64,000 bases of DNA, from assembly GCA_000091205.1 (NCBI GenBank), contig AP006497.2, one strand, 5' to 3'. The stretch comes from Cyanidioschyzon merolae (lineage: Eukaryota). The notes beneath the pieces were generated by a model. It was not told where the DNA came from. It saw nothing but the letters and a program-made list of their open reading frames with translations, and made no database searches. This document shows, one piece after another, positions 20,083 through 38,237 of the stretch; the first letter of the stretch is position 1, and every line of letters starts with the position of its first letter. Made by a program: the position numbers and the translations under genes.

Positions 20083-23000
20083 ATGCCGTCGTCCCCGACA
20101 CCGGGGGAGCTGCGCGCTCGACTGGAGGATCCTCAGCTCACCTCTGCAGAGCGTCTCAAGTTGCTTATCGAATTACGGGAAAACATTGAGTGGTTTCAAT
20201 CTACAGATTACCAGCAGTTTCTGGACCAATTAATCCCGTGCTTTGAGCAGATTCTCACAACGTTAACGAGACCGCAACTTGAAGAGAATGCTGAACAGGC
20301 TCTGCGACGAACCGTTCTCGAGGTGCTGAGTCGTTTGCCGCACGGGGAGGCGTTGCGGCCGCACGCACGACGACTCCTGCAAATGTGCCAGTATGTGCTC
20401 GACGTTGATGATGCGGAGCCGAACGCGGTTCTGGCGCTGCAGATCATGTTTGAGTGCCACAAAGCGTACCGTCCGCAACTTGCAGCGGCGATACCACCCT
20501 TTTTGGACTTTGTTTTGCGCATTTACGGCGTTTTTGAGTGGCGTGAATCAGATGATGATTCCCTGGTTGCTGAAGACACCGGACAACAGGATACATACCT
20601 TGAGCCGGGTTTGGAACAGGATGGCAGCGTCGAGGCAGCGTCGCGCAACCGACCGACGAATGTGCGGTATGCCCCGGCCTTGCGCTCTTATCGGACGGTT
20701 CGCGAATGCCCTCCGTTGTTTATGTATTTGTCGCAACACTATCCTGCTCTGATCGAGCCGCGACTCGATGAGCTTCTCGCAGTGATGGTGCGCGCTATCG
20801 AGATCCAGGTACCGCCGACGTCACCGGCTCGAGCTCTGCCGATCTACCACGACTTCATTACAGCGCAGATGAAAACCGTATCGTTTATTTCGTTCTTGCT
20901 GCGGCAGTTTGAGTCGCGAATGCTGCAGTACGCGGAGCGCGTTCCGCGCTCCGTCGTGAATCTACTACTCAACTGCCCAGACAGTGCGGTCTCGATTCGG
21001 AAGGAGCTGCTTATTGCCAGTCGGCATTTGTTAGCAACTGAGTTTCGCAGGGGTTTTTTCCTGCAAACAGACCTCCTTCTGGATGAGAAAGTCCTCATTG
21101 GAACCAGTCGAGCTGCTTACGAGACGTTGCGACCTCTGGCCTACTCGTTCCTCGCAGAGTTAGTTCATTTTGTGCGTTTAGAAGTGACGCTACCTCAACT
21201 GAGTCGCATCATTTATCTCTTTTCGACGAACGTTCACGATGCATCCCTTAGTTTCTCTATGCAAGCAACATCCATTCGTTTGTTGCTCAATCTCATTGAG
21301 GGTATCATGCACCGTCGCGAAGACCTCAACACCCGCGGACGCCAGCTTCTAGAACGTATTTTCGAAACGATTGTAACCAAGCTGATGGAAGTCGCCGAGG
21401 TGGTGCCGTCGTTGCTCGTGAGCACCGGCGCCGCCGACGGCAATGACGCCGAGGATAAGGCGAATGGGTCTGCGTCGAGCCAGCGCGCCTCTTCACCCAT
21501 ACCTGAGCCTTCTGCGAGCACAGAGACAGGTGCGATGCGCCCATCTGCAGTCCCGGATGAAAAGTCTCAAGAGGAGCGTTCCAAAGAGGTGCAGGAGTGC
21601 CGCCAACTCGTTAGAACCCTCGTTCTAGGTCTGAAGACCATTGTATGGAGCATGAGCAACGCTTTCGGAGACTCACGCACCCGGGGTCTGACTGAATGGG
21701 AATGCATTCTTGTCAGCCGGATGCTGCCGGCAGCGCGAACCTGTTTCCAGCTCTACAAATTCGGAGAGCCGGCGGAACAAAAAGAGATTTTGGACCAATT
21801 CGCTCAGGTGTTCACGGTAATGACTCCGCGCAACTTTCAAGACATCATCGGTGGACGCCTGCCCCAGCTGCTGGCGTTCATGGTCGAGCACCAGACTGCG
21901 CTCTCCATCCCGCAACATTTTTTGGCGAATACGAGCACCTCACGGTTCTTTGCGGATATCCTGATCACTTTTCTGACGGAGCATTTGGAGCAGGTGGTAA
22001 GCGACGATGCTGCGCGAGCGTCGGTGCTGTTGCGGTTATTCAAAATCATGTTCGCTTCGGTAACCCTATTCGCCGATAATGAGCCGGTGCTGAAGCCTCA
22101 CCTCGGTACCATCGTTCGAAGGTGCCTGGAGCTCGCTGCCACTGCAGAGAATCCTACGAATGCACTGCAGGTGCTTCGGGCACTCTTCAAGTCTCTTGCA
22201 GGGGGTCGCTTTGAGCTGCTTTATCGCGAATTCGTACCTATGCTCTATTACCTGCTTCATAGCCTGGAACGACTCATGCAAGGGCCTCTAGGCGAATCGC
22301 ATGGTCTCCTGCTCATCGAGCTGTGCCTAACTGCACCGGCTCGCCCATCCACTATTTTCCCGTACTTGCGTATGCACATGCGACCATTGGTGCGCGGCCT
22401 AGATTCCGAATCGGAGCTAACTTCCTTAAGTTTCCGAACGTTTGAATTTTGGATCGATACGCTCCACCCCGAGGTACTTGAGCGATTGATGCAGGCGGTG
22501 CAACCAGAACTGGAACGAGCGCTCTGGCGATACTTGTCGCCGACAAGCCCATTTTCAGCACAAGCAGTGCGCATTCTAGGCAAGCTGGGTGGTTTGAATC
22601 GCAAGACACCTCGAGAACTGACACCCTTGCCATGGCAGCAGCCTGTTCAAGCCATACATGCCGCGTTGGCCTGGTGTGATCGCGCCGAGCCGCTCACGGT
22701 AGCGCTCGATGAAGTGATCAATGCTGCAGTCGACGCAGTGCTATTCCAGGCCTCGTACAAAGTCGCCGCATACACTCTCTTGCAGCAGGTGATGATTGCC
22801 GCGCTCTCCAGCGCGTTGCCGCCACAGATCAAAGGGTGCCCTGCGGACCTCTTGCCCGCAAGCGTGTACACGATGACGAGTGCTTTCCCCCGGTTGCAGG
22901 TGTCCAAGACGATTTACACCAGAATGCTTACCGCGCTGTTCTTTGCCAGCGGTGATGACGCTCTGCAGCAGACTCGAAACGCTGTGGAATTTGCGCGACA

Positions 23001-26000
23001 ACTCTGTGATTATTTTTGTCGCATATGGATGGCACCTGTTCTTATGGAGAAAAGCACGTTGTCGGCACTCGAAGCAGCAGCGCTTAATGCCCATCGCACT
23101 CCCCCGGAAAACATCACCGAATGGACTCGATTTCCAGCCGCAGTGACCATCGACTGTTTCCTGGATGCACTGGTGGAGGCTGCTGTGCTTCAGCAAAAGA
23201 CCCTCGATCTGGCTGCTGCAGCGAAGGATCTTAACCTGTTCGCGCTGAGCCGCTGTGTCGAATTATTCAAAGGTGACTTTAGAGGCCCGCAACGCCCTGT
23301 GGTACCTGCGAGCGACGCAGCCGAGGTCGCGGCGCCTGACTCGAAACCGCTGACAGCTGCAGCCAAAGGTGCCCGCGCGACGGAGGCACCGAGTGCTGAG
23401 ACAGCGGCAACCACTGCAGTAGACGCTCCCGAGCACGAAAGCGTAGACCGTCTGCGCGACGACCACCGAGGCGCAGATACAGCGACTTGCGTGGACGAAG
23501 AGATCGCGCCACCGCTGCATAGTGTCGCGGGGGCCTCGCGCCTGACCGAGCAACTTGCGCTGCTGGTAGAGCGCATCTCCCATTTGGGTTATCGGGAGCG
23601 ATGGCAGGATCGCCTCAGCTGTGCAATGCTGCTGGCCGGCATCATCGAGCAACTGCCAACGGTGGTATTCCTGGATCGCTCTTATTGTCTTTACGAAGCG
23701 CGACTTGTTCGGGTTCTGCTGCAGGTTCTCAAAGGCTGCGCGCAAGAGGGCATGGCCAGCCGCAAACCTGCCCCACTAGTTCGACAGACATTGGAGACCC
23801 TACTGCGGCGTTGCCACGAGCCCACTAGTCCCGCGTGGGCGCTCGAGGACGTCACGTCGTCGACAATCCCGGAGACCGATCGACCCAGCAAGACCAATGC
23901 ATCGACACCTCGTGCGCGCTGTGGAGATGTGGTCGCCTGCCTTGTCTTTGATTTGGCCTCAGAGCACCAAGCTGTGCGCGAGACTGTGCACGCGTCGCTG
24001 GCACAACTGCTGCGCTACGGCGTTGGCCAGAACATGGCCGAGGTGCTCGCGCTGGCCCAGACACAGATCCTGCGGCCGTTACTCTCTCGTCGTGTTCGCA
24101 CGCTGCACTATTCCAGTCAGGTTGGGCATGTGGATTGTCTGCATTACTGCCTCGAAAACGGCATTATCCGGCCTTTCATTGATCAAGAGACGTCGCTGTT
24201 GCGCACCTCGTTGGTTGCAGCGATGGAGATATTTGAGGATCCGATTAATACGAGGCTCGGAGAAGCGGATGCGCTCATGCTGAACCGCCTGCTCGAAAAT
24301 CGTTTCGTCGACCAGGAGACCATCACGGCTATTGTGATGCTGCGGGAGAAGGTGCTGCAATTTTTGGCGCTTTGTCTGCGGCAGATCGACCAATTGGTAC
24401 ACACGCCGAACGAGGATATACGCTCGCTGTACGCACGCCTCGTTGCTTGTTTCTTCCGCGGTGTCGAGAGTCGGCATGAGGCCGTCACCAGGGCGGCGAA
24501 GCATGGACTGCGCGTTTTCACAGAACGTTCGCGTCAACTGCCCCGTGGGATTCTGTCGAGTAATCTGCGCCCGATTCTCCAAAATCTCTCCGACACGAAC
24601 AAGCTCTCGCTGCCGTATGCGCAGACGTTGGCAAATGTGCTGGAAGTGCTCTCAAACTGGTTCAATGTGCAACTCGGAGAGCGACTCGTGGAGCATTTGA
24701 TGAACTTGCGCGCTGGAAACCCACGCAATCCGTCGTTGCTAGCAGCGCGCATCATTGACTTGTTCCATCTATTGCCACCGGCTGCTTCGCGCTTTCTCGA
24801 TCGGCTCATCGCCATTGTGCTGTCCTTCGAGGATGAAATGGGGCCAGCGGATACCGGAGCTGGTCATCACGGTCTGCAAAGTCGCTGGGCAGGCTCCATG
24901 TCGCCGTATCGTGCTCCACTGTTGCGTTACCTGGAGAAGCACGCCAATCTGGCGATTGGCTACTTTTTAGAACGCATTCGCTTTGCGAACTACGCCTTGT
25001 TGTTTCAGTCATTGCTGCGAGCGCACAATGCGGAAAACCTGCGTCGCGAACTGGCGAACGACGTTTCGCGCTTTATTGCGGCAACCTTTGATCGTGGTCA
25101 TCTGTTGCAGGGTCTGCTCATTGTGGATGCACTCGAATCGTTCCAAGCAGGCTGGATCGCCACCCAGCGCCCAATATACAACATCGCCTTGCAGATCTGG
25201 CAGTCGGCAGAGCGACTGGAGCGCCTCCGCCGCGAGGAGACGCTCCCCGTTGACCAGCTGGCCGAGTCGTCACTGTTGGCACACGTGATCCTAGCGTACT
25301 GTGCTGTACACCATGGCGAAGTCGACGGTCTGTATGCGTTGCTCTCGATATTCTCTTTACGCACATTACGCGACTTTAGTTTCGTTCGACGCTTTCTTAC
25401 CGAGACGGTAGCCCAAAGCTATCCTATTCTGTATCGCAAGAAGATTGTGGAGCGATTTCTGGAGCGTTACCTGGATCCTGAGCTTTCGGACGAAGTGAAA
25501 ATGTATGCGCTGCTCTATCTCGTGATTCCAATTTTGCGACAGGCGTTTCGTGCCGGTGAAGGGCTCGCGATTCTCGATGCCGTGACGCTCGAGGTGCTGG
25601 TGAAGCGTCTCTTCACGAGCACACCACCAGCATCGGAAGCGCTAACAGACGCCAGTGCGGATGGCGGCGGCGGCGGCGATACGGCGCCAATGCTCGCGTC
25701 TCCTGCGGAGAGCGACGTGCTTGGAGAAGCGCTGCTGCAACTTTCGACGCTGCTGATTGAGGAGATGCCCATCGAGCTGGTGCAATATCGCCGCGAAATC
25801 ATCCGCTTTGGATGGAATTATCTGAAGCGAGATGATTCGATCGCCAAGCCGTGGGCATTCCTCAATGTGGCACGCTTCTTTGAGGCCTACCAAGCCCCGG
25901 AAAAGATTGTGCTGCAGGTTTTTGTGGCGCTTCTGCGAGCAAGTCAAAGCGAACAGCGCGCACTCGTACGCCAGGCGCTTCGTATTGTGACGAGCATCTT

Positions 26001-29000
26001 GCCATCACGTCTTCCCGCGACGCTGGGTAAGGCGCGCCATGCGCCCTGGATTCGTTTCACCAAGAAGATCTTAGTGGAAGAGAGTTATTCAGCGCTGCAC
26101 TTGGCGCATATTTGGTCGTTAGTCATTGATAAGCAGGAGCTTTTCTTTCCAGGCTACGCGTCGCTGATGCCGCACATGGTGAACTCGTTGCCGCGTCTGG
26201 TCTCGGGCAGCGTTTCAGCTCGAGAGCACCGACGCCTTGCGTTGGAACTTGCGGGTCTCGTGGTCGCGTGGCAGCAGCGCTTGCTGCAAGTCGGGAACAA
26301 CGCCTCCATTTCATCTAACGCACCATCAGAAAATGGGGAAAGCGCAAACGCTAGTCCGCAGACGGGCTCAGCGCCGATGGCATCGCCAGATGTCGCTCGC
26401 CGTCTGGAGGATCTCTCCGCAGTTACCGAAGTGGTGCTGCAGTTTCTGATTCGCCTGCCGTTCCTGGTTTCGGAGCCAGGAGAGCACACAGAGCTTTTCA
26501 CGCGAGCGCGATCGCTACTCGTCAAAGCGCAACGCGTTTGGAACCACCTGGGCAGTGAGCGCTCACCGATTGCTCAAATGTCCTGTCTCGACAAGCTGCT
26601 GGATAATCTGGCGGCTACGGCTGCTGCGTCGCCAACGACAGCCACGGGGCAAACATCGGCTAGCGGTACAAATACCGCCGCGATGCCTGGCGCGCCGGCA
26701 CCCGCGCAGAGCCACAGTACGACGAGCACTATCTCGACATCGACAACGAGCGCAGGCGCGGCGAGCGCTGCACATCATCGCACAGCGAATGCCGGTACCG
26801 CGTCTGCGACTGTAGCACCGCCGAATAACCCGCGAGATGCGCCAGCGAGCCGAGCACGGGAAGCACTCGCGCGTTCCCGACGTCTCGTGCTGGAGCACAT
26901 CGTGGAGCTGTGCGAGTTGTTTCTCGATTGGCAGGGCATTCGCTGGATTCTCGCGAACAGTAACTCACTGCGCAAACTCGTGCGTCCGGTGCTCGCAGCG
27001 GGCATGCTACCGCTTGCCTACCGATTCGCACTGCTGTTGTGCAAACTCTGGCTCCAGATAGGGGACGCCCTGCGTACACCCGAGTCAACAGAGGATCAGA
27101 GAGCAAATCTGGAAACGGTGCGACGAGACTTGGAACAAGCGCTGTTCGAGGCACTCGATATCCATTCGGACACGGCGACGTTGCATCGCTCGTTGCTCCT
27201 GGCCCAGACGCTTGATCCAGAACGTTTCACGACGAAGCATGTGGAGCTGATTGTGCGCATTTTGCAAATCCTCATGCGAGAGTGCCTCGCAGGTATCCAG
27301 ACAAATCGTCGCATGGTGCTGATACCGGCACCAGCGTCCGGGGACCGACCCCAAGCATCTTCGAGCCGAGCGCAACTCGGCACTTCAGCCGGGCGTTCGT
27401 CGCATCCGCCTGAAGCTTCTGTTACTGGTTCTGGTACCGGAGCTTCCTGGCCAGCCGCTACAGGTACGGTTACGAAGACTGGTACTTTTTCGACCATGAC
27501 GCGTCTCGCACAGGTTGCAGGTGAATCAGCACCGTTAGGGTCTGTAGCGGACCCAACCGCCAGTGTCAAAGAGACCAAGTCCGCGCATGTGGCATCCGGC
27601 GATGAGCACTTGCCAGCCAAGGGCGGGTTCGAGTATCCAGGGGTCGCGAACCCGCTCCTTGTGTGTCTGGAGATTCTTGAGCGGCTCTTCCATGGTCTCG
27701 CGGATTATCGCCGGTCGTTTTTGCAGATGCTCTGGGTGCTCTTGGACAAGTGCTGTTACAGCGAGGTACTGATGCACGTGGTGCGCGTCCTGAGTCAGTG
27801 GATTCTCATGGATGCCGATGATCCTGGCGCATTCCTTCAGCCCAAAGAGAAAGTGCATTTTCTTGTGAAAATGACCGTGTTTGAACGTATTACCGGTGCG
27901 GAGGCGCACCTGGAAGCTTTCCTGCCGCTCGTACTGCGCCTCTTGGCGGAACCGTGCCATGCACTGCCTCGAGACTGGCTACCTCGACTCGAACGGCCGT
28001 TTATGATCGGATTGCGCGCGAGTAATCCGCAATTGCGTCAAGCGTTCTTCCAGCTTTTGGATGAATCCATCATTCGTAACCCAGTGGATCGACTCTACTA
28101 CATTTTTGAGTATCAGAGCTGGGAATCGCTTGCCGACTCGTTGTGGATTCGACAGGCAACCGCCTTGCTTCTGGCACTGGTGCAAGTCCCCGGCTCACGG
28201 ATTGAACTGACCCCGGACTGCGTTCGCCTTGGCTGTGTATCGTATCGTAGCGGCACCGCTGCGGATGACGCCATGACCTGGGAGGTCTCGCGGCCGGGCG
28301 CTGACGCTCCTACTGACGCTGCTGATGCCCCCCGTGAGACATTGACAAAGGGCGCTCAACGATCACCTACGGACGATGCGTATGTAGAAGCGTTTGCCGG
28401 TGCCTGGACGGCGCTCGACGGGCACGTCGATACAAATGCATTCTTCGAGGCGCTCCATGAACTCTTGCATCACGATGTGAGTACGCTACAAAGTCTCTGG
28501 ACCCAGCTGTTCGGAGCGGTGTGGTCGCTCCTGAGCGATCGCGAAGAACGCCTGGCCATGCAAGACGCACTGATCGCACTGCTCTGTCGCGATTATCTGC
28601 TGACACAGTGCAGGTGGCGAGTCAATGTCGTGCAGATCATTCTGGATGCGGCGACCAAGTGCGCACCGCAAGTTGTGATTCCGCCTCAGCTCGCATTGCA
28701 TCTTGCGACGCACTGGAACGCCTGGCATATTGCACTGACCTATTTGGAGCGACGTTCGCGCTCGTCGACTTTGGGTGTGGCGCGGCATTCGGATTTCGTG
28801 TTCGATTCGCTGCCTGATGGTCATGAATTTGCTGGGATTCTGGACGCGAAGGCAGAGCTCTATCGGCAGCTGAACGAGTACGATCTGTACATTGGCCTAT
28901 GGAAGCGGCGCGCGATGGACTCGCGAACGCTCTTGGCGCTGTCTCTGGAGCAACAAGGCCACTTGCCGGCAGCTCAGAACCTCTACTATGATGCGATGAC

Positions 29001-32000
29001 GAATACAGAGAGCCGAGTTGCTGTCACCGAGGCCGAAGCCGCACTCTGGGAAGATCGATGGCTGCACTGCGCCGAAGAATTGAACCAGTGGGATGCACTC
29101 ACCGAGTTTTCGCGCACAGTGATGCACCCAACGCTTCTACACGAAGCACTGTGGCGGTTGCCGGACTGGGCGGCGCTCAAAGAGCTGCTCATGAAGATGC
29201 CGCCCGAGGATAGTCCACGCCTCAAGATTCTCCAGTCGTTTGTGCAGTTACAGGAGAATCGACTGGATCAGGTGGAGCCTTTCATCTCTTCGGGAATTCG
29301 ACGCGCCCTCGAGGAGTGGCAAGGCCTCCCCGAGAACTCCAGTATTACGGCTTTTGAGCCATCGCTGGTGCTTTTCCAGCAATTTGTCGAGCTGAGTGAG
29401 AGTGCCTCGATTCTACAGGAGCTTAATAACGCGCTCCAGAACCCGACGCTGCTGGAGACGCACGCGGAGAACATTCGACTGGTGCTGGCGATGTGGCGCG
29501 ATCGTCAGGCCAATCACTGGGATCGGCTCAGCGATTGGAATCGCTTGATCTGCTGGCGTAATCACGTGCTGACTGCGGTAGTGCATACGCTGCAGGGGTT
29601 GCGTAATCGCTCGCGGGTGGATATCCCACAGCCGCTACTCTGCATGGGAATCAACGAGACTGCCTGGAATGTGAACTGCTACGCGCGAGCGGCGCGGAAA
29701 CAGCGTTTGTCTGAAGTGTGTATGCAGGCCCTGCAACGCATGTATCCTTACTCGACAATGGATGTGCAGGATTTTTTCATGAAGACCAAGGAACAGGCCA
29801 AGGCACATTTGCTGTTGCCTTCGAATGATGACGTCGCCCTGCGCGCCGGCCTCGTTCAACTACAACATACGAATCGGGAGTATTTCAATACACGCCAAAA
29901 GGCATACCTCAGTGCCTTGGAGGGCGAGTTCTACCACCGATTGGGCGAGTTTGGGGCAGCGAATCAGGCGTTTGCGTCCAGCGTCCGTGAATACGGCGAG
30001 CACGGCGGCGTCTGGCTCCGTTGGGCCCGCTACTGCGATCAACGTGGTCGTTTGGCGAGCGCCGTTCACTGCTACCTGCAAGGCATTCGCTTTGGATCTA
30101 GACAAGCGCGCGAGCATCTCGTGTCTGTGTTCCGCATCGTTTTTGCACTGGACGGGGCGTCGTCGAATGCCGTCGCTGACTCGAGTAGCCTCGAGGCGAT
30201 GCAGACAGAGCAGGCAGCAGCGACGACGACGACGACGACGACGACGACCGGCACGGCAGACGCTGCTGCTCCCGCCTCGCCGCTTACAACGACATCGGCG
30301 CCTGTTGCCGTGTCGTCGAGCAGCGCGGCGGTGTCTGCGGGCGCTTCCGCTGAGGTGCACGCCTCACAGACGCCTTCGGAGGGTCTCGGCGAGTCGCGCA
30401 CCGACGCCTGTGATGTGTGTGAATCCTTCGTCGGGGTACTCCCGGTCTGGATCTGGGTACCCTGGAGCCACGAGCTCATTTCGTTATTGTCCTTGGGACG
30501 CGAGCTCAAATTGTTGCGGCATATTTTGCTCCGCGTTGCCGGCTACTATCCAGAGGCACTCTTTTTCCAACTGCGGACGTTCATCGAGGAGCGACGGCTG
30601 CTCGATCGCCCTACCCGGATGCTCTGTCCGCGGGTGGATCAGATCCAACTTCCAGTGATGCATCCGCTGCGTTCCCAAGTCGCCAGCGGGATACCTCCCT
30701 CGAGCAGCAGCAGTAGCAGCACATCGAGCGCGAAGAGGAACGACCCCACAACAATAACCGCAGCAGCTGCAGCTGCTGCTACTACTGCCGGTGCGGATCG
30801 GTCCCGCAAACCGGAGTCGACGACGACGACGACGACGACGACGCTCTCTGCTGCCGGAAATGAACCATCGAGCGTTGCTGCTTCAGCCGGGAACACTGCC
30901 GGGAACAGCGCCCAAAAAGATGCGGAAAACGCAAGTGCCAGCGGTGCGAACGCGGCTTCAACGGGAGCGACGCCCGCACCAAACCAGCCACGCGGCTCAG
31001 GCACGAGTGCGCTCCCGAGTGTCGAGCAGAATATTCTCAGCATGTTGCAGTTGCCACTCGGAGATACACCATTCGAAATCGCCGACACTGTGCTGGCGTT
31101 CATGGTGAAGCAACACCCCCAGCTTCTCGTTGAGTTGGAGACCATTGCTCGTGAACTTAGTTTGCGCATGAAACCAAGCGCTGAAGAACAGGTGCTGCAC
31201 GTGCTGAATGCACTGCTGCATCGATGCTGGAGCCTGCCACCGCTGATGCATCGTGAGGTGAGCTCGGGCATGCGCAGCGCCCTCGAGGAGGTCAGCAAGA
31301 TGTGTTTCGGGACCGGGTTGGCCGCGGACGAGTTCCACGTACCACCGACGTTGGCAGATCTCCGTGAGGCCTTTGAGGCAGAACTTGCACCGCAGACCGC
31401 CAAAAACTTTCCAAAAACGATAGAGCCGTTTGTTGCTCTGCTGAGAAAGTGGCGGGGAATCTTCAGCCGGCGCGTTCAAGCCATGCCTGAAACGCTGCGC
31501 CTAGAGCGAGTCTCCCGCAAATTGGTCGACGTTCGTGATTCCCAGCTGCACGTGTTCGGTCAACTCATTCAACTGGCCCAGGAGGATGGCGAGCCTCTGC
31601 CCGATCTCCTGGTCCATATCCAGAGTTTTAGCGTCGACGTGCAAGTTGTCCACCATTGTGGGAGTTCCGCACGCGGCATCGCGGTAACCGGATCCGACGG
31701 CCGTCAGTACCGGTTCCTCGTGGAGACAGCACTTGGGGCGTCGCTCCAACGCAGTGAAGATCGCGTTGGACACGTTTGTCGCTTCATGAACGCACTCTTC
31801 CAACGGGACAGCGAAGCTCGCCGTCGTCGGTTGGTAGCTCTGGTGCCGTTCTCGCTGCCGCTGAGTCCGCAGGCACGACTCGTTGCGTATCAGGAAAACA
31901 CCCTGCGCATCCAGCACGCGTTGCAGGCATTCTGTGAGTGTCACGGATTTGACATGGATGATACGCTGGTGGCTTTCCGCGATACCTGTGCACTGCGATT

Positions 32001-32922
32001 GGAAAGTTTGGGAAATGTTGCTTCGCGTGAGCTGGCGCTCGAGTACCGCCTCGATGCGTTCAAGCGTGCGTGCCTGTCGCTACCGGACTCGGTGCTGGCG
32101 CACTGGGCTGCAGCCTCGCTGCCGGATGCGAATTCGCTTTTCATGGTGCGTAAGCGATTTGCGCTGAGTCTGGGAACCTCGTCGTTGCTCCTGTATCTCT
32201 TGGGGGTGGGTTCACGGACACCAATGCATATTGGGATTCATGGAAGCACTGGTGATGTGGTGCATCTGGAGACGCACCCCATTGTGGTGAGTCGCGGTCA
32301 GCAGGTTTACATTGGATTTGATGAAGCGGTTCCGTTCCGATTGACGAGGAATATTCGGAGTCTCATTCGCCTGACGGGAGTTGAGGGCCCCTTTGCTGGC
32401 TCGATTGCGGCGACGTTGAATGTTGTGTATCGTAACTGGGCGCTTCTGCGGGACCTCATGGGCATCGTTTACACAATGGAGCTCTTTGAGAGAACCAGTC
32501 GAGAGACGCTCCGTGTTGAGGATCTGGCGCAGGCGGTGGAAGAGAGCCTTGTGCGGAGCTGGGCCCGAGTCGAGCCGCTGCCGTTCTCGGCAGCACCGCT
32601 GGTTCAGTCACCAACAGCACCAGCGTACGCTGCGGCAACGGCAACGGCAACGGCAAACGGGAAACGCGTACCACACCCAGAGTCCAGCCACGGTGGTGAT
32701 CATGATCATGATCATGATCATGATCACGAGGTGACGCAGACCCTACCACCGCCTGTGAATACAAAAGCGAATGGCCTCGAATTCGCGGAGCGTTGCGGGC
32801 CGGCGACCTCGGTTCGCGACGAGCCCGAGGGTGTCGCTCGCCGCGTCGCTGAACTCATTGCGAACGCTGGTGACCCTGCGCACTTGTCGCAGATGGAGCC
32901 GCTGTGGTATCCATGGTTCTAA
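20083..32922 (+). CDS. TRA1: TRRAP/Tra1-family PIKK pseudokinase (transformation/transcription domain-associated protein), a SAGA/NuA4 scaffold, read as a single 4279-aa ORF
   Basis: This is a 12.8-kb uninterrupted ORF with long HEAT/FAT-type helical repeats. The C-terminal PI3K-like domain lacks the catalytic DRH/DFG signature ('GVGSRTPMHIGIHGSTGDVVHLETHPIVV'), as expected for TRRAP. It ends in the FATC motif '...DPAHLSQMEPLWYPWF*'. Low-complexity inserts are encoded by (ACG)n poly-Thr at ~30219-30248 and ~30818-30843, poly-Ser near 30700, and (GATCAT)n 'HDHDHDHDHDHE' at 32698-32727. Confidence 0.9.
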   Translation: MPSSPTPGELRARLEDPQLTSAERLKLLIELRENIEWFQSTDYQQFLDQLIPCFEQILTTLTRPQLEENAEQALRRTVLEVLSRLPHGEALRPHARRLLQMCQYVLDVDDAEPNAVLALQIMFECHKAYRPQLAAAIPPFLDFVLRIYGVFEWRESDDDSLVAEDTGQQDTYLEPGLEQDGSVEAASRNRPTNVRYAPALRSYRTVRECPPLFMYLSQHYPALIEPRLDELLAVMVRAIEIQVPPTSPARALPIYHDFITAQMKTVSFISFLLRQFESRMLQYAERVPRSVVNLLLNCPDSAVSIRKELLIASRHLLATEFRRGFFLQTDLLLDEKVLIGTSRAAYETLRPLAYSFLAELVHFVRLEVTLPQLSRIIYLFSTNVHDASLSFSMQATSIRLLLNLIEGIMHRREDLNTRGRQLLERIFETIVTKLMEVAEVVPSLLVSTGAADGNDAEDKANGSASSQRASSPIPEPSASTETGAMRPSAVPDEKSQEERSKEVQECRQLVRTLVLGLKTIVWSMSNAFGDSRTRGLTEWECILVSRMLPAARTCFQLYKFGEPAEQKEILDQFAQVFTVMTPRNFQDIIGGRLPQLLAFMVEHQTALSIPQHFLANTSTSRFFADILITFLTEHLEQVVSDDAARASVLLRLFKIMFASVTLFADNEPVLKPHLGTIVRRCLELAATAENPTNALQVLRALFKSLAGGRFELLYREFVPMLYYLLHSLERLMQGPLGESHGLLLIELCLTAPARPSTIFPYLRMHMRPLVRGLDSESELTSLSFRTFEFWIDTLHPEVLERLMQAVQPELERALWRYLSPTSPFSAQAVRILGKLGGLNRKTPRELTPLPWQQPVQAIHAALAWCDRAEPLTVALDEVINAAVDAVLFQASYKVAAYTLLQQVMIAALSSALPPQIKGCPADLLPASVYTMTSAFPRLQVSKTIYTRMLTALFFASGDDALQQTRNAVEFARQLCDYFCRIWMAPVLMEKSTLSALEAAALNAHRTPPENITEWTRFPAAVTIDCFLDALVEAAVLQQKTLDLAAAAKDLNLFALSRCVELFKGDFRGPQRPVVPASDAAEVAAPDSKPLTAAAKGARATEAPSAETAATTAVDAPEHESVDRLRDDHRGADTATCVDEEIAPPLHSVAGASRLTEQLALLVERISHLGYRERWQDRLSCAMLLAGIIEQLPTVVFLDRSYCLYEARLVRVLLQVLKGCAQEGMASRKPAPLVRQTLETLLRRCHEPTSPAWALEDVTSSTIPETDRPSKTNASTPRARCGDVVACLVFDLASEHQAVRETVHASLAQLLRYGVGQNMAEVLALAQTQILRPLLSRRVRTLHYSSQVGHVDCLHYCLENGIIRPFIDQETSLLRTSLVAAMEIFEDPINTRLGEADALMLNRLLENRFVDQETITAIVMLREKVLQFLALCLRQIDQLVHTPNEDIRSLYARLVACFFRGVESRHEAVTRAAKHGLRVFTERSRQLPRGILSSNLRPILQNLSDTNKLSLPYAQTLANVLEVLSNWFNVQLGERLVEHLMNLRAGNPRNPSLLAARIIDLFHLLPPAASRFLDRLIAIVLSFEDEMGPADTGAGHHGLQSRWAGSMSPYRAPLLRYLEKHANLAIGYFLERIRFANYALLFQSLLRAHNAENLRRELANDVSRFIAATFDRGHLLQGLLIVDALESFQAGWIATQRPIYNIALQIWQSAERLERLRREETLPVDQLAESSLLAHVILAYCAVHHGEVDGLYALLSIFSLRTLRDFSFVRRFLTETVAQSYPILYRKKIVERFLERYLDPELSDEVKMYALLYLVIPILRQAFRAGEGLAILDAVTLEVLVKRLFTSTPPASEALTDASADGGGGGDTAPMLASPAESDVLGEALLQLSTLLIEEMPIELVQYRREIIRFGWNYLKRDDSIAKPWAFLNVARFFEAYQAPEKIVLQVFVALLRASQSEQRALVRQALRIVTSILPSRLPATLGKARHAPWIRFTKKILVEESYSALHLAHIWSLVIDKQELFFPGYASLMPHMVNSLPRLVSGSVSAREHRRLALELAGLVVAWQQRLLQVGNNASISSNAPSENGESANASPQTGSAPMASPDVARRLEDLSAVTEVVLQFLIRLPFLVSEPGEHTELFTRARSLLVKAQRVWNHLGSERSPIAQMSCLDKLLDNLAATAAASPTTATGQTSASGTNTAAMPGAPAPAQSHSTTSTISTSTTSAGAASAAHHRTANAGTASATVAPPNNPRDAPASRAREALARSRRLVLEHIVELCELFLDWQGIRWILANSNSLRKLVRPVLAAGMLPLAYRFALLLCKLWLQIGDALRTPESTEDQRANLETVRRDLEQALFEALDIHSDTATLHRSLLLAQTLDPERFTTKHVELIVRILQILMRECLAGIQTNRRMVLIPAPASGDRPQASSSRAQLGTSAGRSSHPPEASVTGSGTGASWPAATGTVTKTGTFSTMTRLAQVAGESAPLGSVADPTASVKETKSAHVASGDEHLPAKGGFEYPGVANPLLVCLEILERLFHGLADYRRSFLQMLWVLLDKCCYSEVLMHVVRVLSQWILMDADDPGAFLQPKEKVHFLVKMTVFERITGAEAHLEAFLPLVLRLLAEPCHALPRDWLPRLERPFMIGLRASNPQLRQAFFQLLDESIIRNPVDRLYYIFEYQSWESLADSLWIRQATALLLALVQVPGSRIELTPDCVRLGCVSYRSGTAADDAMTWEVSRPGADAPTDAADAPRETLTKGAQRSPTDDAYVEAFAGAWTALDGHVDTNAFFEALHELLHHDVSTLQSLWTQLFGAVWSLLSDREERLAMQDALIALLCRDYLLTQCRWRVNVVQIILDAATKCAPQVVIPPQLALHLATHWNAWHIALTYLERRSRSSTLGVARHSDFVFDSLPDGHEFAGILDAKAELYRQLNEYDLYIGLWKRRAMDSRTLLALSLEQQGHLPAAQNLYYDAMTNTESRVAVTEAEAALWEDRWLHCAEELNQWDALTEFSRTVMHPTLLHEALWRLPDWAALKELLMKMPPEDSPRLKILQSFVQLQENRLDQVEPFISSGIRRALEEWQGLPENSSITAFEPSLVLFQQFVELSESASILQELNNALQNPTLLETHAENIRLVLAMWRDRQANHWDRLSDWNRLICWRNHVLTAVVHTLQGLRNRSRVDIPQPLLCMGINETAWNVNCYARAARKQRLSEVCMQALQRMYPYSTMDVQDFFMKTKEQAKAHLLLPSNDDVALRAGLVQLQHTNREYFNTRQKAYLSALEGEFYHRLGEFGAANQAFASSVREYGEHGGVWLRWARYCDQRGRLASAVHCYLQGIRFGSRQAREHLVSVFRIVFALDGASSNAVADSSSLEAMQTEQAAATTTTTTTTTGTADAAAPASPLTTTSAPVAVSSSSAAVSAGASAEVHASQTPSEGLGESRTDACDVCESFVGVLPVWIWVPWSHELISLLSLGRELKLLRHILLRVAGYYPEALFFQLRTFIEERRLLDRPTRMLCPRVDQIQLPVMHPLRSQVASGIPPSSSSSSSTSSAKRNDPTTITAAAAAAATTAGADRSRKPESTTTTTTTTLSAAGNEPSSVAASAGNTAGNSAQKDAENASASGANAASTGATPAPNQPRGSGTSALPSVEQNILSMLQLPLGDTPFEIADTVLAFMVKQHPQLLVELETIARELSLRMKPSAEEQVLHVLNALLHRCWSLPPLMHREVSSGMRSALEEVSKMCFGTGLAADEFHVPPTLADLREAFEAELAPQTAKNFPKTIEPFVALLRKWRGIFSRRVQAMPETLRLERVSRKLVDVRDSQLHVFGQLIQLAQEDGEPLPDLLVHIQSFSVDVQVVHHCGSSARGIAVTGSDGRQYRFLVETALGASLQRSEDRVGHVCRFMNALFQRDSEARRRRLVALVPFSLPLSPQARLVAYQENTLRIQHALQAFCECHGFDMDDTLVAFRDTCALRLESLGNVASRELALEYRLDAFKRACLSLPDSVLAHWAAASLPDANSLFMVRKRFALSLGTSSLLLYLLGVGSRTPMHIGIHGSTGDVVHLETHPIVVSRGQQVYIGFDEAVPFRLTRNIRSLIRLTGVEGPFAGSIAATLNVVYRNWALLRDLMGIVYTMELFERTSRETLRVEDLAQAVEESLVRSWARVEPLPFSAAPLVQSPTAPAYAAATATATANGKRVPHPESSHGGDHDHDHDHDHEVTQTLPPPVNTKANGLEFAERCGPATSVRDEPEGVARRVAELIANAGDPAHLSQMEPLWYPWF
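32698..32727 (+). repeat. (GATCAT)5 hexanucleotide microsatellite inside the TRRAP-like CDS, translated as an His-Asp repeat. Adjacent (GCAACG)3 at ~32635-32656 is translated as ATATATA.
   Basis: Direct reading: 'gatcatgatcatgatcatgatcatgatcac'. It is in frame and lies between the PI3K-like and FATC regions. Confidence 0.9.
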
Positions 32923-33424
32923 CGCATCGACAGCTGCAGTGGGGATGCAGGATACGCGCGACGGCGAGCTAGTTCGTTCACGAACGTTTCGTGATCGGAG
33001 CACGAGTAGCGCGCTCGCTGGAAACAAGGTTGAAGAGCGCACGAGTTGTTTCGGGGGATACACGAACAAGCGTTCCCGAGTCGATTCTGGATCGAGGCAC
33101 AGCTGCTTCGGGAAAGCAACGGATCAGTGAGCGCGATGTCAATGTCAATGACGACAACAAGAACAACAACGACGAGGTCCGGGCGTCTTGTTGTTCATAT
33201 GCGGCTGCAGGGTATCTTTAGTCGTATTGAATCATAGAACAGTATGATCGTGTATCCGTGTTCGGGGTAAATCTTACGCTGTGAATATAAACGGCGCGAA
33301 AGTGTTACTGGATCGTTGAACGACACTCTACAGGTGCGTTGCTCTAGGCGAGCCTCCGATGTCCTTTGCTGCTGACCACGAAGTTTTTTCCCATCGCACG
33401 TCATCAGCGTTCCAATACAATACC

Positions 33425-33636
33425 CACACACACACACAGACAGAGAACTCAATGGAACCTCGAAAGTTCGCTCAGTACAAGGCCGCTAGACGCTGCAGAA
33501 GCACGAGACATCTCCGGATGTTGATCGAGGCGTTCAACTGTGTGTCTACAGAGAAGGAAACGTCAGCGCATGTGGTTGTTCGCGGGAACACACACACACA
33601 CACACACACACAGACAGACACAGACAGACACACACG
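33425..33636 (+). repeat. Two AC-rich microsatellites, (AC)n(AGAC)n, at ~33425-33445 and ~33588-33636, flanking ~140 bp
   Basis: Direct reading: 'cccacacacacacacagacagaga' and 'aacacacacacacacacacacacagacagacacagacagacacacacgcc'. Confidence 0.9.
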
Positions 33637-36600
33637 CCACTGCAAACCTGTCAGGTTCGATTGCCTCGTCATCTGTGGTCCGGTCTGCCTAAAGTACACC
33701 ATTTCGTGGATCGCTCTCCGTTTTATGCTGTGCTTTTGTACCGGTTTCAGGGTGTAACCGGGCTTTTGATGCGTATCTTTCGTCGTGGACGCCTCCATGG
33801 GAATGGTACAGGGTGCGCTTCCTGCACTCGTTGGATGCTCTCGTCTGCGACACGCGATTACAGCCTTTGAGCGCTGCAGGATGCCCAGTGGTGCAGAATG
33901 GAACAAAACCACGCGACTCGATGGTCATTTGCTTTTCCAATTCATTGAAAAAGTTGGTGCATACATGCTCTCTGCCTCTGTACAACAGAGACCGTTCGCA
34001 ATTCTAGATCGATCCCGTGGAAACCGTCCAAGTATCGCCACATGCCCTTTATGGACGCGCGTATCCTCTCTAAACCGTAAAATTTCCTATACCAGTCAGT
34101 AGGTTTTTTCTGGAAGAGTGAAGTGAACGTACAATGCGAACAGAAGAGGGCGTACATCGTGACGCGCTCGAGAGTGCTCCGCATAGGGTTCGCATTTCAA
34201 GGTTGGTTTTGAGTTTTTTTGGTACCGCAGCTGGCGATATTCCAGGTGTCGACTCGATGCGGCGACCTGTAAAGTTAAGTTGGGAATCAAGTGTTCCATT
34301 CCCTGGACTTTTGCTCAGGTCGCACGGCGCATCCTGCCCCGCGCGCCAGCTGGGTTGTCGTGCGTAGCTTTCATCGACAAGTTCTGGATGAATGTGGATT
34401 GTTGGTTGTCCTGCGTCCGGACTCCTACGTACCGTTGCTTATCGACGTGCATCGAGAGAGTAGAGGCGACCGCTACTCGAATAAGAAGCCATACAATTGC
34501 TAATGGAGTACGGTCTTTCACTTTTCAGAGGAATCTCCCCGGTAATCGGTTATAGGAAGGAGGGGTTTAGAAGGGTTTCCGGCTGATCTTTCCACCCTGG
34601 CACTCTTCTCATTACTGTTCTTGCTTGTACTCTGTTCGGAAGGATGCTTCTCTTCATTGTCGGGCGGTTTGCGCGTTATATCCTTGGCTCGTCGGGGCGT
34701 CATCCATGAGGTCGCTGTACCCTGTATGCATTTTTCCACGCGATTCACATGTGTGGAGTTATCTGTCGGCCAGAGGCTGGTCTCGTCCATCCATGAATCT
34801 ACGAATCCTCGAGTACCTTTTCGTAGTTTTCTCTGTCGAAAGCACGCTCCAGGACCGGAGCGCATATATGCGCTCCGTGCTGCACTCAAACTGAAGAGCG
34901 ATAGTGCAGAACGGGGGCTCGTGAAGGTAGAGACCGACTTGTCGGAGAACAGAGCCACGGATGCGAACGCCGCATCGAGTGATTGAAGGTCGTATAAAAG
35001 GTGTTTGAGAAGAGATAGTTCGCCTTCGACTTAGTGAAACAGGGACAGAAAGCGGGTACGAAGTGCAGCTCAACGCTAGTCGCAGGCGCGTACTCCCTGA
35101 CCGCTGTTGCGTAATGTAAATCGACGTTGTCAAGAATCGTTACGAAAGATTTCCGGAAGCACAAGTCAGAGGGTGTTTCGGCGAAGGATTCGTTACTGAA
35201 CGCTCCTGAAGGTTAGGCGATTTGTAGTGTTCAAAGAACTAGATCGCTGCTGGGGCTCACGTTGTCGTCAAGCCAGGTTGTCTCGTCTTGATGGGCAGCA
35301 GTCCAGCGCTTCTTGAGTGCGCTTACACAAGTCGACTAATACTGCCGAGTAAATTCTGCTCGAATGAGACGGATACTTTTGACCCTTGTACGAAGAGCTC
35401 GAATTTCTCCTTGAAATTGATAGAATCTTGATCAGCGTGCGACGTTGTACCACGGAAACATGCGTGTTTCTTAGTCCTTCCGATTGTCTTCCTTGCGTAT
35501 GGAATCTCAAGTACGGAAACGTCGTATCTCGTGGCAGCTGCGGTAGTATTTTTCCGAACACGTATGGATTGGAACGGGTTCCCCGGGAGATGATTGTATA
35601 GATGAATTCTTGAAAGTTCTGAGTTCGGTGCATGATTCACAGAATCGGGACTGGATCAAGTGTGCTTCACACGCCTGCAGACAGCAGACGCCTGGTTTGC
35701 TCGTATTTTTGCGACCACGCGCTAGTTCACAAGAGTCTCATCTTCGCTTGACTGCGTGTGAGAAAACGGATAAAAACAGAAAACGCGTGCCGATGACCAT
35801 ATTCTAGAATTCAATGCGCTGCGAATGACCTGGGCATGTCGTGTGCAAGTCAGCCGATAGCGTTCTAAGTGCAGCATCGGCTGAGTGGACCGTATCACTT
35901 GGGTCAGCACAGAATGGGACACCGAACTGCTCGCGCTGTGTGTGCCTTGCGATTTTCGTCGCAACTTGGGCTTAGATATCTAGCTTCGACGTTCGGCATT
36001 GTAGCGGTATGAGGTTACGGGTTGATGGGAAGTTTCATCGCGCTCAGCAGTTCTTCAGGGGTGAATTTTCCGACTGTTCGACGCCTCTAGATCTTGTATA
36101 CAAGCCTCGACTCTGCTGTTTTCCTTAAGCGTACCATGTTCAAATCACGCATTCCTCAAGTTTTCGATCGTTCTGTTCCAAGGGAACTCGTGGGTGCAGC
36201 TGCTCGTGCGGCTGGACTCGCGAAGAGAGAAACTCGATGCTGCACCTAGGAAACTCCTTCAGATGTTCATGCCAAACGCCCAGTAATTGCCCTAAAAATG
36301 ATCGGTACCGTTCGAAAGACAAACCCACCACGCTTTACGTTCATCGACGAAAGAGCGTTCCATAGATGCGTGACATATGTAATGGGATATGCCTCCAGAG
36401 ACTCTATTTTCATCTGTTTATATGTCGTATTGTCTTGGACTCGAAGCTCGGTCACCGCGACATCGCGTGCAATGGAGCATCCGTTACCTCTTTGCACCAG
36501 GAGATCGAAGGTTATAGTCGGATGAAAAGTTTTCTCGACATCATCTCCTGCCTGAATGATCTCGTCGATACTTGCTTCATCATGGATCACATCGCATTCC

Positions 36601-37286
36601 ACAATTCTTCTTCTGATTGAGACAGCGTGCACTTGCGTGTTCAACGGATAAAGTACTCGCCGAGTGCATTCCCCGCAAAAGCCCCTGACCGTTGGGCACG
36701 ACATCGGTTTCGAACGCGGGAGCGGGCATCCAGCCCAGCCCTCTGTACACGTCAAGGGCTTCTACCGAGCGATGATGAAAGTCTCCACGCGCTACAGGTC
36801 AGCTCTTGGAGGAAAACGTGCGGTGGACATCTGGGAACACCTGATCGCAGCCAAGCTTCAATTTTACGAATGGCGAACCAGCGCTGTATGCAGAGAAGAA
36901 GAGCTTGGCAATCGACACGTAGATTCAACCGCGTAGCTGTACATGACATAAAAAAGCAGAATAGCCAGAGGTCGCGAAATGAAAAGGCGAGCGCTGCCGT
37001 CAACATCCTCTGACTGTTGACAAAGGAGCCAGAGATGCAAGAGAGATCGGCGTATTGAAAGACGACGATAACAAGAGAAAAGGAAGCAATCGCAGAAGAA
37101 GCCCACAAAAATTAGAATTCACGATCGTTGAAAGATATGCAAGCTTGATCGTATGCTTTCGAGTTTGCGCACTGCACGCACTCCATTTCATGCTCGTACG
37201 AGTCTAGCGCACGGGGTTGCGATGGATCCATCGAGACCCTGCAGCGCGCATCTTTCTCCAATGTCAAATTAATTCCAATAAATACA

Positions 37287-37919
37287 TTGAAATACAGTGT
37301 TGTATCGAAATGTGCTGGACATCATGGAGACGCGGCATGCGCGCAGTCGTCAGCATTCCAGCGAGCGTCTTGCAGGGCATCCAGCATACATAACTGCTTC
37401 GAAACGCGGTTGCGGTCCGTTCGACCGGCACCATCGCGTGCGCTCGTGTGTGCAGCGGTGGTGCTGGCCCTGCAGCAAGTGAGCTGGCGCTTGATGCATA
37501 CCTTGCACCTCGCAACGAAACAGCCGTTCGGCGTGCACTGTGTTGCAGTGTCGCCTAGGGGGCGCCGACGGCAGCAGCAGCAGCAGCAGCAGCAATATCC
37601 CCAAAAACGCACTGCAGGCGTGCCTCTCGCGTTTGGCGGCGGCTGGGAAGTCACCCTGGGATCGTTGCTTTCTACACTACTCGCCCTGGGGCTGGTGCTC
37701 TGGGCAGAACGAAGATCTTGCTCGGCTTGTCAGGGCACAGGCATGGCCCCGTGTCCATCCTGCAGGGGAACGGGCTGGGCGCCCGGCGCTCGTGCACAAG
37801 TCTGCGGACGTTGCGACGGCGTCGCACGCGTGCCTTGTCCGCGGTGTGCCGGGCGCCGGCCTCGTCAGCGGCAATCAAGCCGGCGATCGACAACATTCAC
37901 AACTCGAGGCGACAAGTGA
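37287..37919 (+). CDS. Small polyQ protein with a predicted TM helix and a DnaJ-type CxxCxGxG zinc-finger domain (BSD2/LQY1-like architecture)
   Basis: The 210-aa ORF contains 'RRRQQQQQQQQYPQ' from (CAG)8 at 37571-37594. A hydrophobic 'VTLGSLLSTLLALGLVLWA' follows. Then comes 'CSACQGTGMAPCPSCRGTGWAPGARAQVCGRCDGVARVPCPRCAG', four CxxC pairs with the CxxCxGxG spacing of the DnaJ cysteine-rich domain. The C-terminal tail is basic. Confidence 0.45.
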   Translation: MKYSVVSKCAGHHGDAACAQSSAFQRASCRASSIHNCFETRLRSVRPAPSRALVCAAVVLALQQVSWRLMHTLHLATKQPFGVHCVAVSPRGRRRQQQQQQQQYPQKRTAGVPLAFGGGWEVTLGSLLSTLLALGLVLWAERRSCSACQGTGMAPCPSCRGTGWAPGARAQVCGRCDGVARVPCPRCAGRRPRQRQSSRRSTTFTTRGDK

Positions 37920-38237
37920 AGAGGCACGGGAAATCGTCAACCGCTGTCGCAGAAAACGCCTTGGGGTCTGCGTAGATCGTAGTCATGGCGTTACAGAGCG
38001 CGGACGCTTCACCAGCACCGGGAATAGAAACCGCACTCGAGGGAGGCATGACGCCAGCGCCGCGAGCGCGTTACTCCTTCACGCGTCTCGGTAGCAACGA
38101 TGCTGCTAGTGATCCTGGTAGTCATGGTTTACGGACTGCGCTCGGTCCGATGCGCTAGCGTACTTATGACGACAGTGCCTGCTTATCATGGATTTCAGGA
38201 ATTGGGCTGAAGTACGGTGGGAGTCTCTCGAGACCGC

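Follow-up and report, generated by a model that had tools for sequence, protein, structure and literature searches.

CMO047C, a lineage-restricted J-less DnaJ-type zinc-finger protein with a predicted membrane anchor in the red alga Cyanidioschyzon merolae

On the plus strand of a 64,000-nucleotide stretch of the Cyanidioschyzon merolae genome (contig AP006497.2 of assembly GCA_000091205.1; referred to here as the window), an open reading frame (ORF) between 37287 and 37919 predicts a hydrophobic segment followed by four CxxC pairs, which raises the questions of whether a genuine gene lies here, to which protein class its product belongs, and where in the cell this product might act. A first-pass annotation, made from the DNA letters only, had described the product as a membrane-anchored polyQ protein with a DnaJ-type zinc finger like those of the assembly chaperones BSD2 and LQY1. 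The ORF contains CYME_CMO047C (CMO047C), which is a bona fide nuclear gene under strong purifying selection. Its finger is predicted, from profile and fold comparisons, to be a compact, BSD2-type DnaJ Cys-rich domain in a protein without a J domain, and the protein probably serves as an organellar folding or assembly factor.

Gene model and conservation of CMO047C

The open frame closes with TGA at 37917 to 37919, and both the frame and this stop codon had been read correctly in the first pass. The start given there, 37287, is merely the TTG that opens the mechanical ORF of 210 amino acids; the earliest in-frame ATG lies at 37494, is the annotated start, and yields a product of 141 amino acids, MHTLHLATKQPFGVHCVAVSPRGRRRQQQQQQQQYPQKRTAGVPLAFGGGWEVTLGSLLSTLLALGLVLWAERRSCSACQGTGMAPCPSCRGTGWAPGARAQVCGRCDGVARVPCPRCAGRRPRQRQSSRRSTTFTTRGDK. 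By exact-sequence look-up, the translation of 37494 to 37916 is identical to BAM81436.1, XP_005537472.1, and UniProt M1UUB6, and CMO047C already has an entry in the annotation, as a hypothetical protein and no more. The coding sequence and its parts are as follows.

37494..37919, plus strand: coding sequence of CYME_CMO047C, 141 amino acids and TGA, annotated as a hypothetical protein of C. merolae 10D chromosome 15
37494..37628, plus strand: N-terminal region M1-L45, basic (+7), free of acidic residues, and unconserved in sequence; a candidate cleavable organellar presequence
37572..37595, plus strand: Q8 tract, encoded by (CAG)7CAA; a polymorphic microsatellite in the N-terminal region
37629..37715, plus strand: AFGGGW motif, single hydrophobic helix, and juxtamembrane ERR (A46-R74), from 19-residue Kyte-Doolittle hydropathy, AlphaFold, and conservation
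37719..37856, plus strand: DnaJ-type cysteine-rich zinc-finger domain C76-R121, with Cys 76/79, 87/90, 104/107, and 115/118
37857..37916, plus strand: Arg/Gln-rich basic C-terminal tail R122-K141, net charge +6, of low model confidence

Metagenome gene callers extend CMO047C upstream to 253 to 254 amino acids. Between the window and near-identical contigs, a 2-bp indel at 37202 to 37203, upstream of the ATG, breaks the frame of this extension, and within the 141-amino-acid coding sequence the only differences are one synonymous single-nucleotide polymorphism (37718) and a 3-bp in-frame repeat indel. At the orthologous locus L004, a stop codon stands three codons upstream of the corresponding ATG, and both L004 and a further orthologous locus, L006, have their nearest in-frame ATG 32 residues ahead of the conserved AFGGGW motif. 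Because of the upstream indel and the start positions in the orthologs, the ATG at 37494 is the best-supported start, and the annotated 141-amino-acid model is the best-supported gene model. An upstream extension or a spliced exon, as implied by the 210-amino-acid ORF and the 253-amino-acid calls, was rejected on account of the 2-bp indel, the lack of conservation, and the L004 stop codon.

A homology search with CMO047C returned close relatives only, namely, P0001 (99%), P0002 (68%), and P0003 (73%); P0017 is a fourth, far more distant relative with 35% identity on a contig of 67.6% GC. P0003 derives from the metagenome SRR7903764, part of a study of two Kunashir thermal pools, in one of which, Faust Lake (pH 2), a single red alga of the Cyanidiaceae predominates (PMC8468003), and P0002 derives from a Los Azufres fumarole sediment metagenome (PMC9583776). 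The gene order of Tra1, the CMO047C ortholog, a gene of ~940 amino acids on the minus strand, and a protein kinase gene is kept in L004/L005, L006, and L012. P0017, at locus L012, is a positional ortholog that has Tra1, a 941-amino-acid gene, and the kinase as its neighbors.

Selection was assessed over a 76-codon core, from AFGGGW to CAGR, in the three close lineages (C. merolae, L004, and L006). The proportion of nonsynonymous differences (pN) was 0.08 to 0.14 against a synonymous proportion (pS) of ~0.74, which is saturated, and the ratio of the corresponding rates (dN/dS) was ~0.02 to 0.04; 45 to 48 of the ~70 differences in the core fall at third codon positions. With P0017 included, all eight Cys are invariant and the frame is kept in four cyanidialean lineages. 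The shared frame, the invariant Cys, the low dN/dS, and the synteny establish CMO047C as a real gene. The first pass had left this point conditional, with a finger in another frame at orthologous loci as the sign of an artifact; the four syntenic orthologs have it in the same frame with their eight Cys kept.

That CMO047C is a spurious ORF or annotation artifact in GC-rich DNA, with the Cys pattern and the polyQ tract as repeat by-products, therefore deserves hardly any credence. Such a reading would agree with the annotation as a hypothetical protein and with scores under the Pfam thresholds (see below). It would also agree with the outcome of a literature search, which found CMO047C, M1UUB6, and XP_005537472 mentioned nowhere, and of a search for expression data, in which the CMO047C identifier was not found in the supplements of the C. 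merolae transcriptome, translatome, and long-read studies examined. It does not agree with the conservation just described, in particular with a dN/dS this low at saturated synonymous sites, nor with a cluster of four CxxC pairs that has no second occurrence in the window and did not arise in shuffled sequences, nor with the confident prediction of a BSD2-like fold. The conservation data have effectively refuted it.

The range of the gene seems narrow. A scan of metagenome DNA yielded only more C. merolae-like copies, without any new lineage, and of two word-indexed searches with alignments, one yielded P0002 alone and the other added the distant P0230, derived from expressed sequence tags (ESTs), and two weak matches. 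Outside the four cyanidialean lineages, similarity is limited to the generic finger, and the best matches there have E values of 1e-10 or weaker. As far as detectable, CMO047C appears to be restricted to Cyanidioschyzon-like red algae (Cyanidiophyceae).

The zinc-finger domain and its relatives

The Cys residues of CMO047C follow the spacing C-x2-C-x7-C-x2-C-x13-C-x2-C-x7-C-x2-C, and the four motifs, read from 37719, are CSACQGTG, CPSCRGTG, CGRCDGVA, and CPRCAGRR. Four CxxC pairs with CxxCxGxG spacing had been reported in the first pass; the four pairs are present, but only two of the four motifs have the full CxxCxGxG, and the other two are relaxed at the last Gly. Motif 3 has the full pattern in two orthologs. 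The three close lineages have CxxCxGR as motif 4; the distant P0017 has CPQCDAKR there, and its motif 1 has decayed to CAVCRGQH, with all eight Cys retained. Four CxxC pairs within 50 amino acids occur once in the six frames of the window and in 0 of 30 shuffles.

Scanned as a single protein, CMO047C lies under every Pfam gathering score. Its best match, BSD2_CRD, reaches 18.7 bits against a cutoff of 27, and PF00684 (DnaJ_CXXCXGXG), the profile that had been proposed as a check, reaches a subthreshold 16.9 against 32.7 bits; these best values come from the near-full-length ATG-start form (residues 2 to 141). The family assignment therefore rests on profile and fold evidence. A profile built from three orthologs and run against 1.84 billion representative proteins matched 128 further proteins at an E value of ≤1e-3, nearly all of them over the finger only, and among the 132 proteins scanned, 117 carry PF00684 and 106 carry BSD2_CRD. 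Fifty of the profile matches align with the CMO047C domain, leaving the eight Cys columns undisturbed, and the family spacing is C-x2-C-x-G-x-G-x3-C-x2-C-x-G-x-G-x(8-11)-C-x2-C-x-G-x-G-x3-C-x2-C. Against PDB sequences, the ortholog profile found the Cys-rich domain of Escherichia coli DnaJ (1exk) at an E value of 0.0026, and the 51-sequence family profile found 1exk (3e-10), DNAJA3 (7e-8), and BSD2 (4e-6).

Structure prediction agreed with these matches. AlphaFold, run on the 51-sequence domain alignment, gave a mean predicted local distance difference test score (pLDDT) of 79.9, with 89 to 95 in the finger; this run replaced one on a 4-sequence alignment, which had given a pLDDT of 50. In a Foldseek search with the model, BSD2 ranked first (probability of 1.00; target TM-score of 0.63), followed by DNAJA2, anti-TRAP, and the DnaJ Cys-rich domain. 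No J-domain family (HPD) appeared among the Pfam matches at an E value of ≤10, and only about 45 unconserved residues precede the transmembrane helix. The profile matches, the aligned Cys columns, and the predicted fold all bear out the DnaJ-type Cys-rich or BSD2 class named in the first pass, and the finger can be described as a J-less, compact, BSD2-type DnaJ Cys-rich domain, as far as profiles and a structural model can tell. By analogy with the DnaJ and BSD2 structures, it presumably binds two Zn(II) ions, one through motifs 1 and 4 and the other through motifs 2 and 3.

The compact module of four CxxC pairs also occurs in proteins of very different length and architecture, some of them beside bacterial-type genes and some in the fungus Allomyces. 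Since the module is found in so varied a set of matches, the finger alone does not mark a taxon; such a use had been suggested for it in the first pass. The origin suspected there, algal rather than oomycete, is nonetheless correct; it is settled by the exact matches of the neighboring proteins to the red alga C. merolae 10D and not by the finger.

Among characterized proteins, the closest in fold is BSD2 (BUNDLE SHEATH DEFECTIVE 2; Arabidopsis 6ekb), the Rubisco assembly chaperone of chloroplasts, with which CMO047C shares the compact four-motif J-less hairpin at a sequence identity of only ~28%. Red algae have a red-type (form ID) Rubisco, for which, to our knowledge, no need for BSD2 has been reported. 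BSD2 is soluble and has no transmembrane segment (PMC7865324), whereas CMO047C has a conserved hydrophobic helix, E52-R74, and for this reason CMO047C is no BSD2 ortholog. The Cys-rich domain of type I DnaJ/Hsp40 proteins (1exk, DNAJA2/3, and Ydj1) belongs to the same motif class and has the same 1-2/3-4 arrangement. These proteins also contain a J domain, a G/F region, and C-terminal substrate-binding domains, all of which are missing from CMO047C, whose whole length is 141 amino acids; in addition, motifs 2 and 3 of CMO047C are joined by a short loop (13 amino acids), as in BSD2, and those of DnaJ by an extended hairpin.

The closest in architecture are proteins of the LQY1/ZnJ6/HCF222 type, described from the green lineage, which have the same layout of a basic N terminus or targeting region, an anchor, and a J-less CxxCxGxG finger; the targeting element of CMO047C is read from composition only, and the likeness to LQY1 and HCF222 is drawn from their descriptions. 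Their proposed action as ATP-independent membrane holdases or oxidoreductases would match that of CMO047C. ZnJ6, a thylakoid protein, likewise has four motifs, two Zn sites, and a transmembrane segment (PMC7865324). FIP (FtsH5-interacting protein, At5g02160) has a transit peptide, a transmembrane segment, and a zinc finger, is located at the thylakoid, and is found only in mosses and higher plants (PMC5915565); it has only two CxxCxGxG repeats, in contrast to the four CxxC pairs of CMO047C. AtTam37 resides in the intermembrane space of the chloroplast (PMC12895209). These papers also cite BSD2, LQY1, and PSA2.

No green-lineage protein scored as ortholog-like in the homology and profile searches, in which the strong matches were all cyanidialean, and hence orthology gives no ground for carrying a function over from LQY1, BSD2, or PSA2. 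The label "BSD2/LQY1-like" given in the first pass is borne out for the fold and the layout, not for family membership or orthology. Since these searches brought out no orthology to a green-lineage family and outside similarity is confined to the finger, we place CMO047C on sequence grounds in the J-less DnaJ-type zinc-finger ("DnaJE") class, of which it would be a new member restricted to its lineage.

A separate small family was found in P0092 and P0230 (marine metagenome and EST derived), which have a transmembrane helix, a juxtamembrane RRRSQC or KKRSQC, a four-motif finger, and a conserved acidic C terminus, RDPESE.(D/E)D.GM. Read by eye, their leaders look like bipartite complex-plastid signals (...SLG followed by F... 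in one pattern and ...SFAFTP... in the other). P0092 and P0230 may represent a red-lineage plastid family of transmembrane zinc-finger proteins that is only distantly related to CMO047C.

Membrane anchor, N-terminal region, and probable compartment

The transmembrane helix described in the first pass is borne out: the top hydrophobic 19-mer, VTLGSLLSTLLALGLVLWA, has a Kyte-Doolittle mean of 1.98, and AlphaFold predicts a long helix over E52-R74. The 25-residue block AFGGGW-x-VTLGSLLSTLLALGLVLW is identical at 24 of its 25 positions, with a single substitution across the three close lineages, and 14 to 18 of its 25 codons differ synonymously only; the finger, by contrast, has 9 to 13 substitutions in 50 residues in the same lineages. 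The helix also contains a small-residue pattern of the small-xxx-small type, G..S...S...A.G. The constraint on the helix exceeds the need of a generic anchor and, together with the small-residue pattern, suggests specific helix packing. As P0017 keeps the hydrophobicity but not the sequence, this suggestion is limited to the close lineages, and the idea of an invariant transmembrane helix as a universal feature is tempered by the diverged helix of this distant syntenic ortholog.

The region ahead of the helix evolves differently. It measures 32 to 45 amino acids in the close lineages and about 70 amino acids or more in L012, and in all lineages it is strongly basic (+7 to +13) and almost devoid of acidic residues. 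Apart from scattered Arg, nothing in it is shared but an RRR cluster and, immediately ahead of the conserved block, an R-[TA]-A. Composition alone gives this region the signature of a cleavable organellar presequence, and it is read as such here. The Q8 tract lies within it. Tandem Repeats Finder reports a perfect 24-nt (GCA)8 at 37571 to 37594, and the Q8 noted in the first pass is present, but its codons are (CAG)7CAA and not (CAG)8. The length of the tract does vary, as the first pass had proposed to check: Q7, Q8, and Q9 alleles, encoded by (CAG)6-8 CAA, occur in metagenome contigs of the C. merolae type and in cluster members. The orthologs P0002 and P0003 have no such tract. Being polymorphic and missing from orthologs, the polyQ tract stands outside the conserved design, with which the first pass had combined it, and it is read as a neutral, length-variable, lineage-specific microsatellite in an apparently weakly constrained segment, not as a functional module. 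In P0017 (L012 6001-6903), a Pro7 run occurs in the much longer Arg-rich region ahead of the helix, where C. merolae has Q8. This region seems prone to homopolymer expansion in separate lineages.

Taken together with the functions of analogous proteins, this layout makes it reasonably probable that CMO047C is a J-less membrane-anchored zinc-finger holdase or assembly factor and/or oxidoreductase in an organelle, most likely the plastid. The N-terminal 32 to 45 residues, basic and fast evolving, would be a cleavable presequence; the conserved helix would anchor the finger and probably dock it to a partner; and the finger, by analogy with BSD2, LQY1, PSA2, ZnJ6, HCF222, FIP, and AtTam37, would act without ATP on clients beside the organellar membrane, in a role as thiol-disulfide oxidoreductase and/or membrane-tethered holdase or assembly factor. 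Zinc binding, chaperone or oxidoreductase activity, presequence cleavage, plastid location, and topology are what we infer for CMO047C. The prior for the plastid comes from the J-less CxxCxGxG proteins FIP, ZnJ6, and AtTam37, which are described in the cited papers as chloroplast proteins, and from the distant relatives P0092 and P0230, which combine a transmembrane helix and a finger with leaders that look by eye like signal-peptide or "SFAF"-type leaders, as in red-derived complex plastids.

Several observations weigh against this reading. Rhodophyte plastid presequences normally have F or another aromatic residue at the very N terminus (PMC7038456), and only one of the three close lineages has such a residue, namely, L006 (MGWDRA, with W3), with none in C. 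merolae (MHTLHL) or L004 (MIPLIAL). With its Arg-rich, Ser/Thr-poor composition, the N terminus could just as well be a mitochondrial presequence. In P0017, the helix is no longer perfectly conserved, and the segment is still hydrophobic and rich in small residues. The topology is ambiguous, since three lineages have a strongly basic C-terminal domain and the fourth has one with a net charge of -2. The subthreshold Pfam scores, the search for green-lineage orthologs, and the search of the omics supplements, all given above, count on the same side.

A protein of the same class in the mitochondrion is a possible but unlikely alternative. A mitochondrial processing peptidase would cleave at R-[TA]-A, the helix would stop transfer or hold the protein in the inner membrane, and the finger would be at work in the matrix or in the intermembrane space, either as a chaperone or as a redox factor. 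N-terminal regions of +7 to +8 with 0 to 1 acidic residue and few Ser/Thr (a single one in 32 residues in L004) are in keeping with it, as are the conserved R-[TA]-A ahead of the conserved block, which would suit a processing site of the R-2 type, and the missing N-terminal aromatic residue in two of the three close lineages (PMC7038456). The J-less families with weak Pfam matches (BSD2_CRD and zf-AtTam37) and those in the cited papers are, on the other hand, plastid proteins, and the gene is so far known only from photosynthetic cyanidialean algae. The plastid is most likely, ahead of the mitochondrion, though not by a large margin.

The charge around the helix bears on a further possibility, that of a type II signal-anchor protein of the endoplasmic reticulum or secretory pathway with a cytosolic N terminus and a luminal, disulfide-bonded rather than zinc-bound Cys-rich domain. 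In the distant ortholog, the N-terminal side of the helix carries +13 and the C-terminal side -2, so that, if the protein were left uncleaved, the positive-inside rule would favor a cytosolic N terminus, and the sole hydrophobic segment lies ~45 residues from the N terminus. Against this, each of the three close lineages has strongly basic flanks on both sides of the helix, the fold of the domain corresponds to the zinc-binding one of DnaJ and BSD2 and includes Gly-rich turns of the kind usual in Zn knuckles, and an N terminus that varies extremely in sequence and length but stays rich in Arg is more typical of presequences; a secretory location is thus very improbable.

The same basic charges could suggest a membrane-tethered nucleic-acid-binding finger, whose very basic finger and Arg/Gln tail would have organellar RNA or DNA as their targets instead of client proteins, for instance, in tethering nucleoids or polysomes to a membrane. 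In the three close lineages, the net charge is +4 to +6 in the finger and +5 to +6 in the tail. This basic character is lost in the distant ortholog, with its C-terminal part at a net -2, and the fold matches BSD2, the DnaJ Cys-rich domain, and anti-TRAP, which are protein-binding modules, making nucleic acid binding an improbable function. An organellar chaperone or redox factor is the reading that we retain.

Genomic surroundings and significance

The ORFs of the window are exact matches to the C. merolae 10D entries BAM81433 to BAM81441, on a 902,900-bp record. The GC content of the window, 55%, and its giant uninterrupted ORFs are in keeping with this origin. The genes around CMO047C are as follows.

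20083-32922, plus strand: Tra1/TRRAP, an uninterrupted ORF of 4,279 amino acids
38238-41042, minus strand: convergent neighbor, a ~934-amino-acid protein of unknown function
Other neighbors in the window, as exact matches: Lys-tRNA ligase (BAM81433), CMO045C (BAM81434), trehalose-phosphate synthase (BAM81439), UDP-sugar transporter (BAM81440), and importin beta (BAM81441)

The Tra1 orthologs in L004 and L012 carry the Tra1_central, Tra1_ring, FAT, and PI3_PI4_kinase domains. In the Tra1 of the window, there are long homopolymer runs of Thr, Ser, and Ala, and an (HD)n run lies close to the C terminus; since it carries such runs, low-complexity tracts are common in C. merolae proteins and not special to CMO047C. 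The ~934-amino-acid neighbor has no Pfam domain at an E value of ≤10, and it is syntenic in four cyanidialean lineages, with 65% identity to its counterparts in L004 and L006 and 39.5% to that in L012.

Between the Tra1 stop codon and the CMO047C start lies a gap of ~4.5 kb (32923 to 37493), with a GC fraction of 0.50 at 34 to 36 kb and (AC)n/(ACAG)n microsatellites at 33419 to 33634. In this gap, no ORF of >162 amino acids and no Pfam, Rfam, or tRNA match was found, and a repeat scan yielded short microsatellites only. The consecutive GenBank protein accessions on its two sides suggest that it contains no annotated gene. In L004, L006, and L012, the spacing between Tra1 and the CMO047C ortholog is ~0.2 to 0.65 kb. 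In this otherwise compact genome, the gap may represent an insertion specific to the species or a decayed element. On the other side of CMO047C, metagenome callers place a 57-amino-acid ORF at 37985 to 38158 (plus strand), in the 318-bp gap between the convergent stop codons; nothing was found to support it, and it is probably a prokaryotic-style overcall on eukaryotic DNA.

C. merolae is a hot-spring red alga with ~4,800 genes, one plastid, one mitochondrion, and efficient homologous recombination, and CMO047C should be easy to test in such a minimal model alga. What is gained for the annotation is support for the 141-amino-acid model over the longer metagenomic calls and the recognition of the polyQ tract as a polymorphic, nonconserved microsatellite. 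J-less zinc-finger chaperones that act as assembly and repair factors of photosynthetic complexes are known almost entirely from the green lineage, and an example from the red lineage would tell whether the J-less finger solution is ancient or was reinvented; it might also lead to a client complex with particular needs at 40 to 56°C and low external pH. We tentatively consider that CMO047C might be an independently arisen red-algal analog of LQY1, FIP, and HCF222, whose helix would dock specifically with a single complex of a plastid membrane, for which a photosystem, FtsH, and the import machinery are candidates. If so, CMO047C would be a factor, specific to its lineage, for the biogenesis or repair of photosynthetic machinery in a thermo-acidophile.

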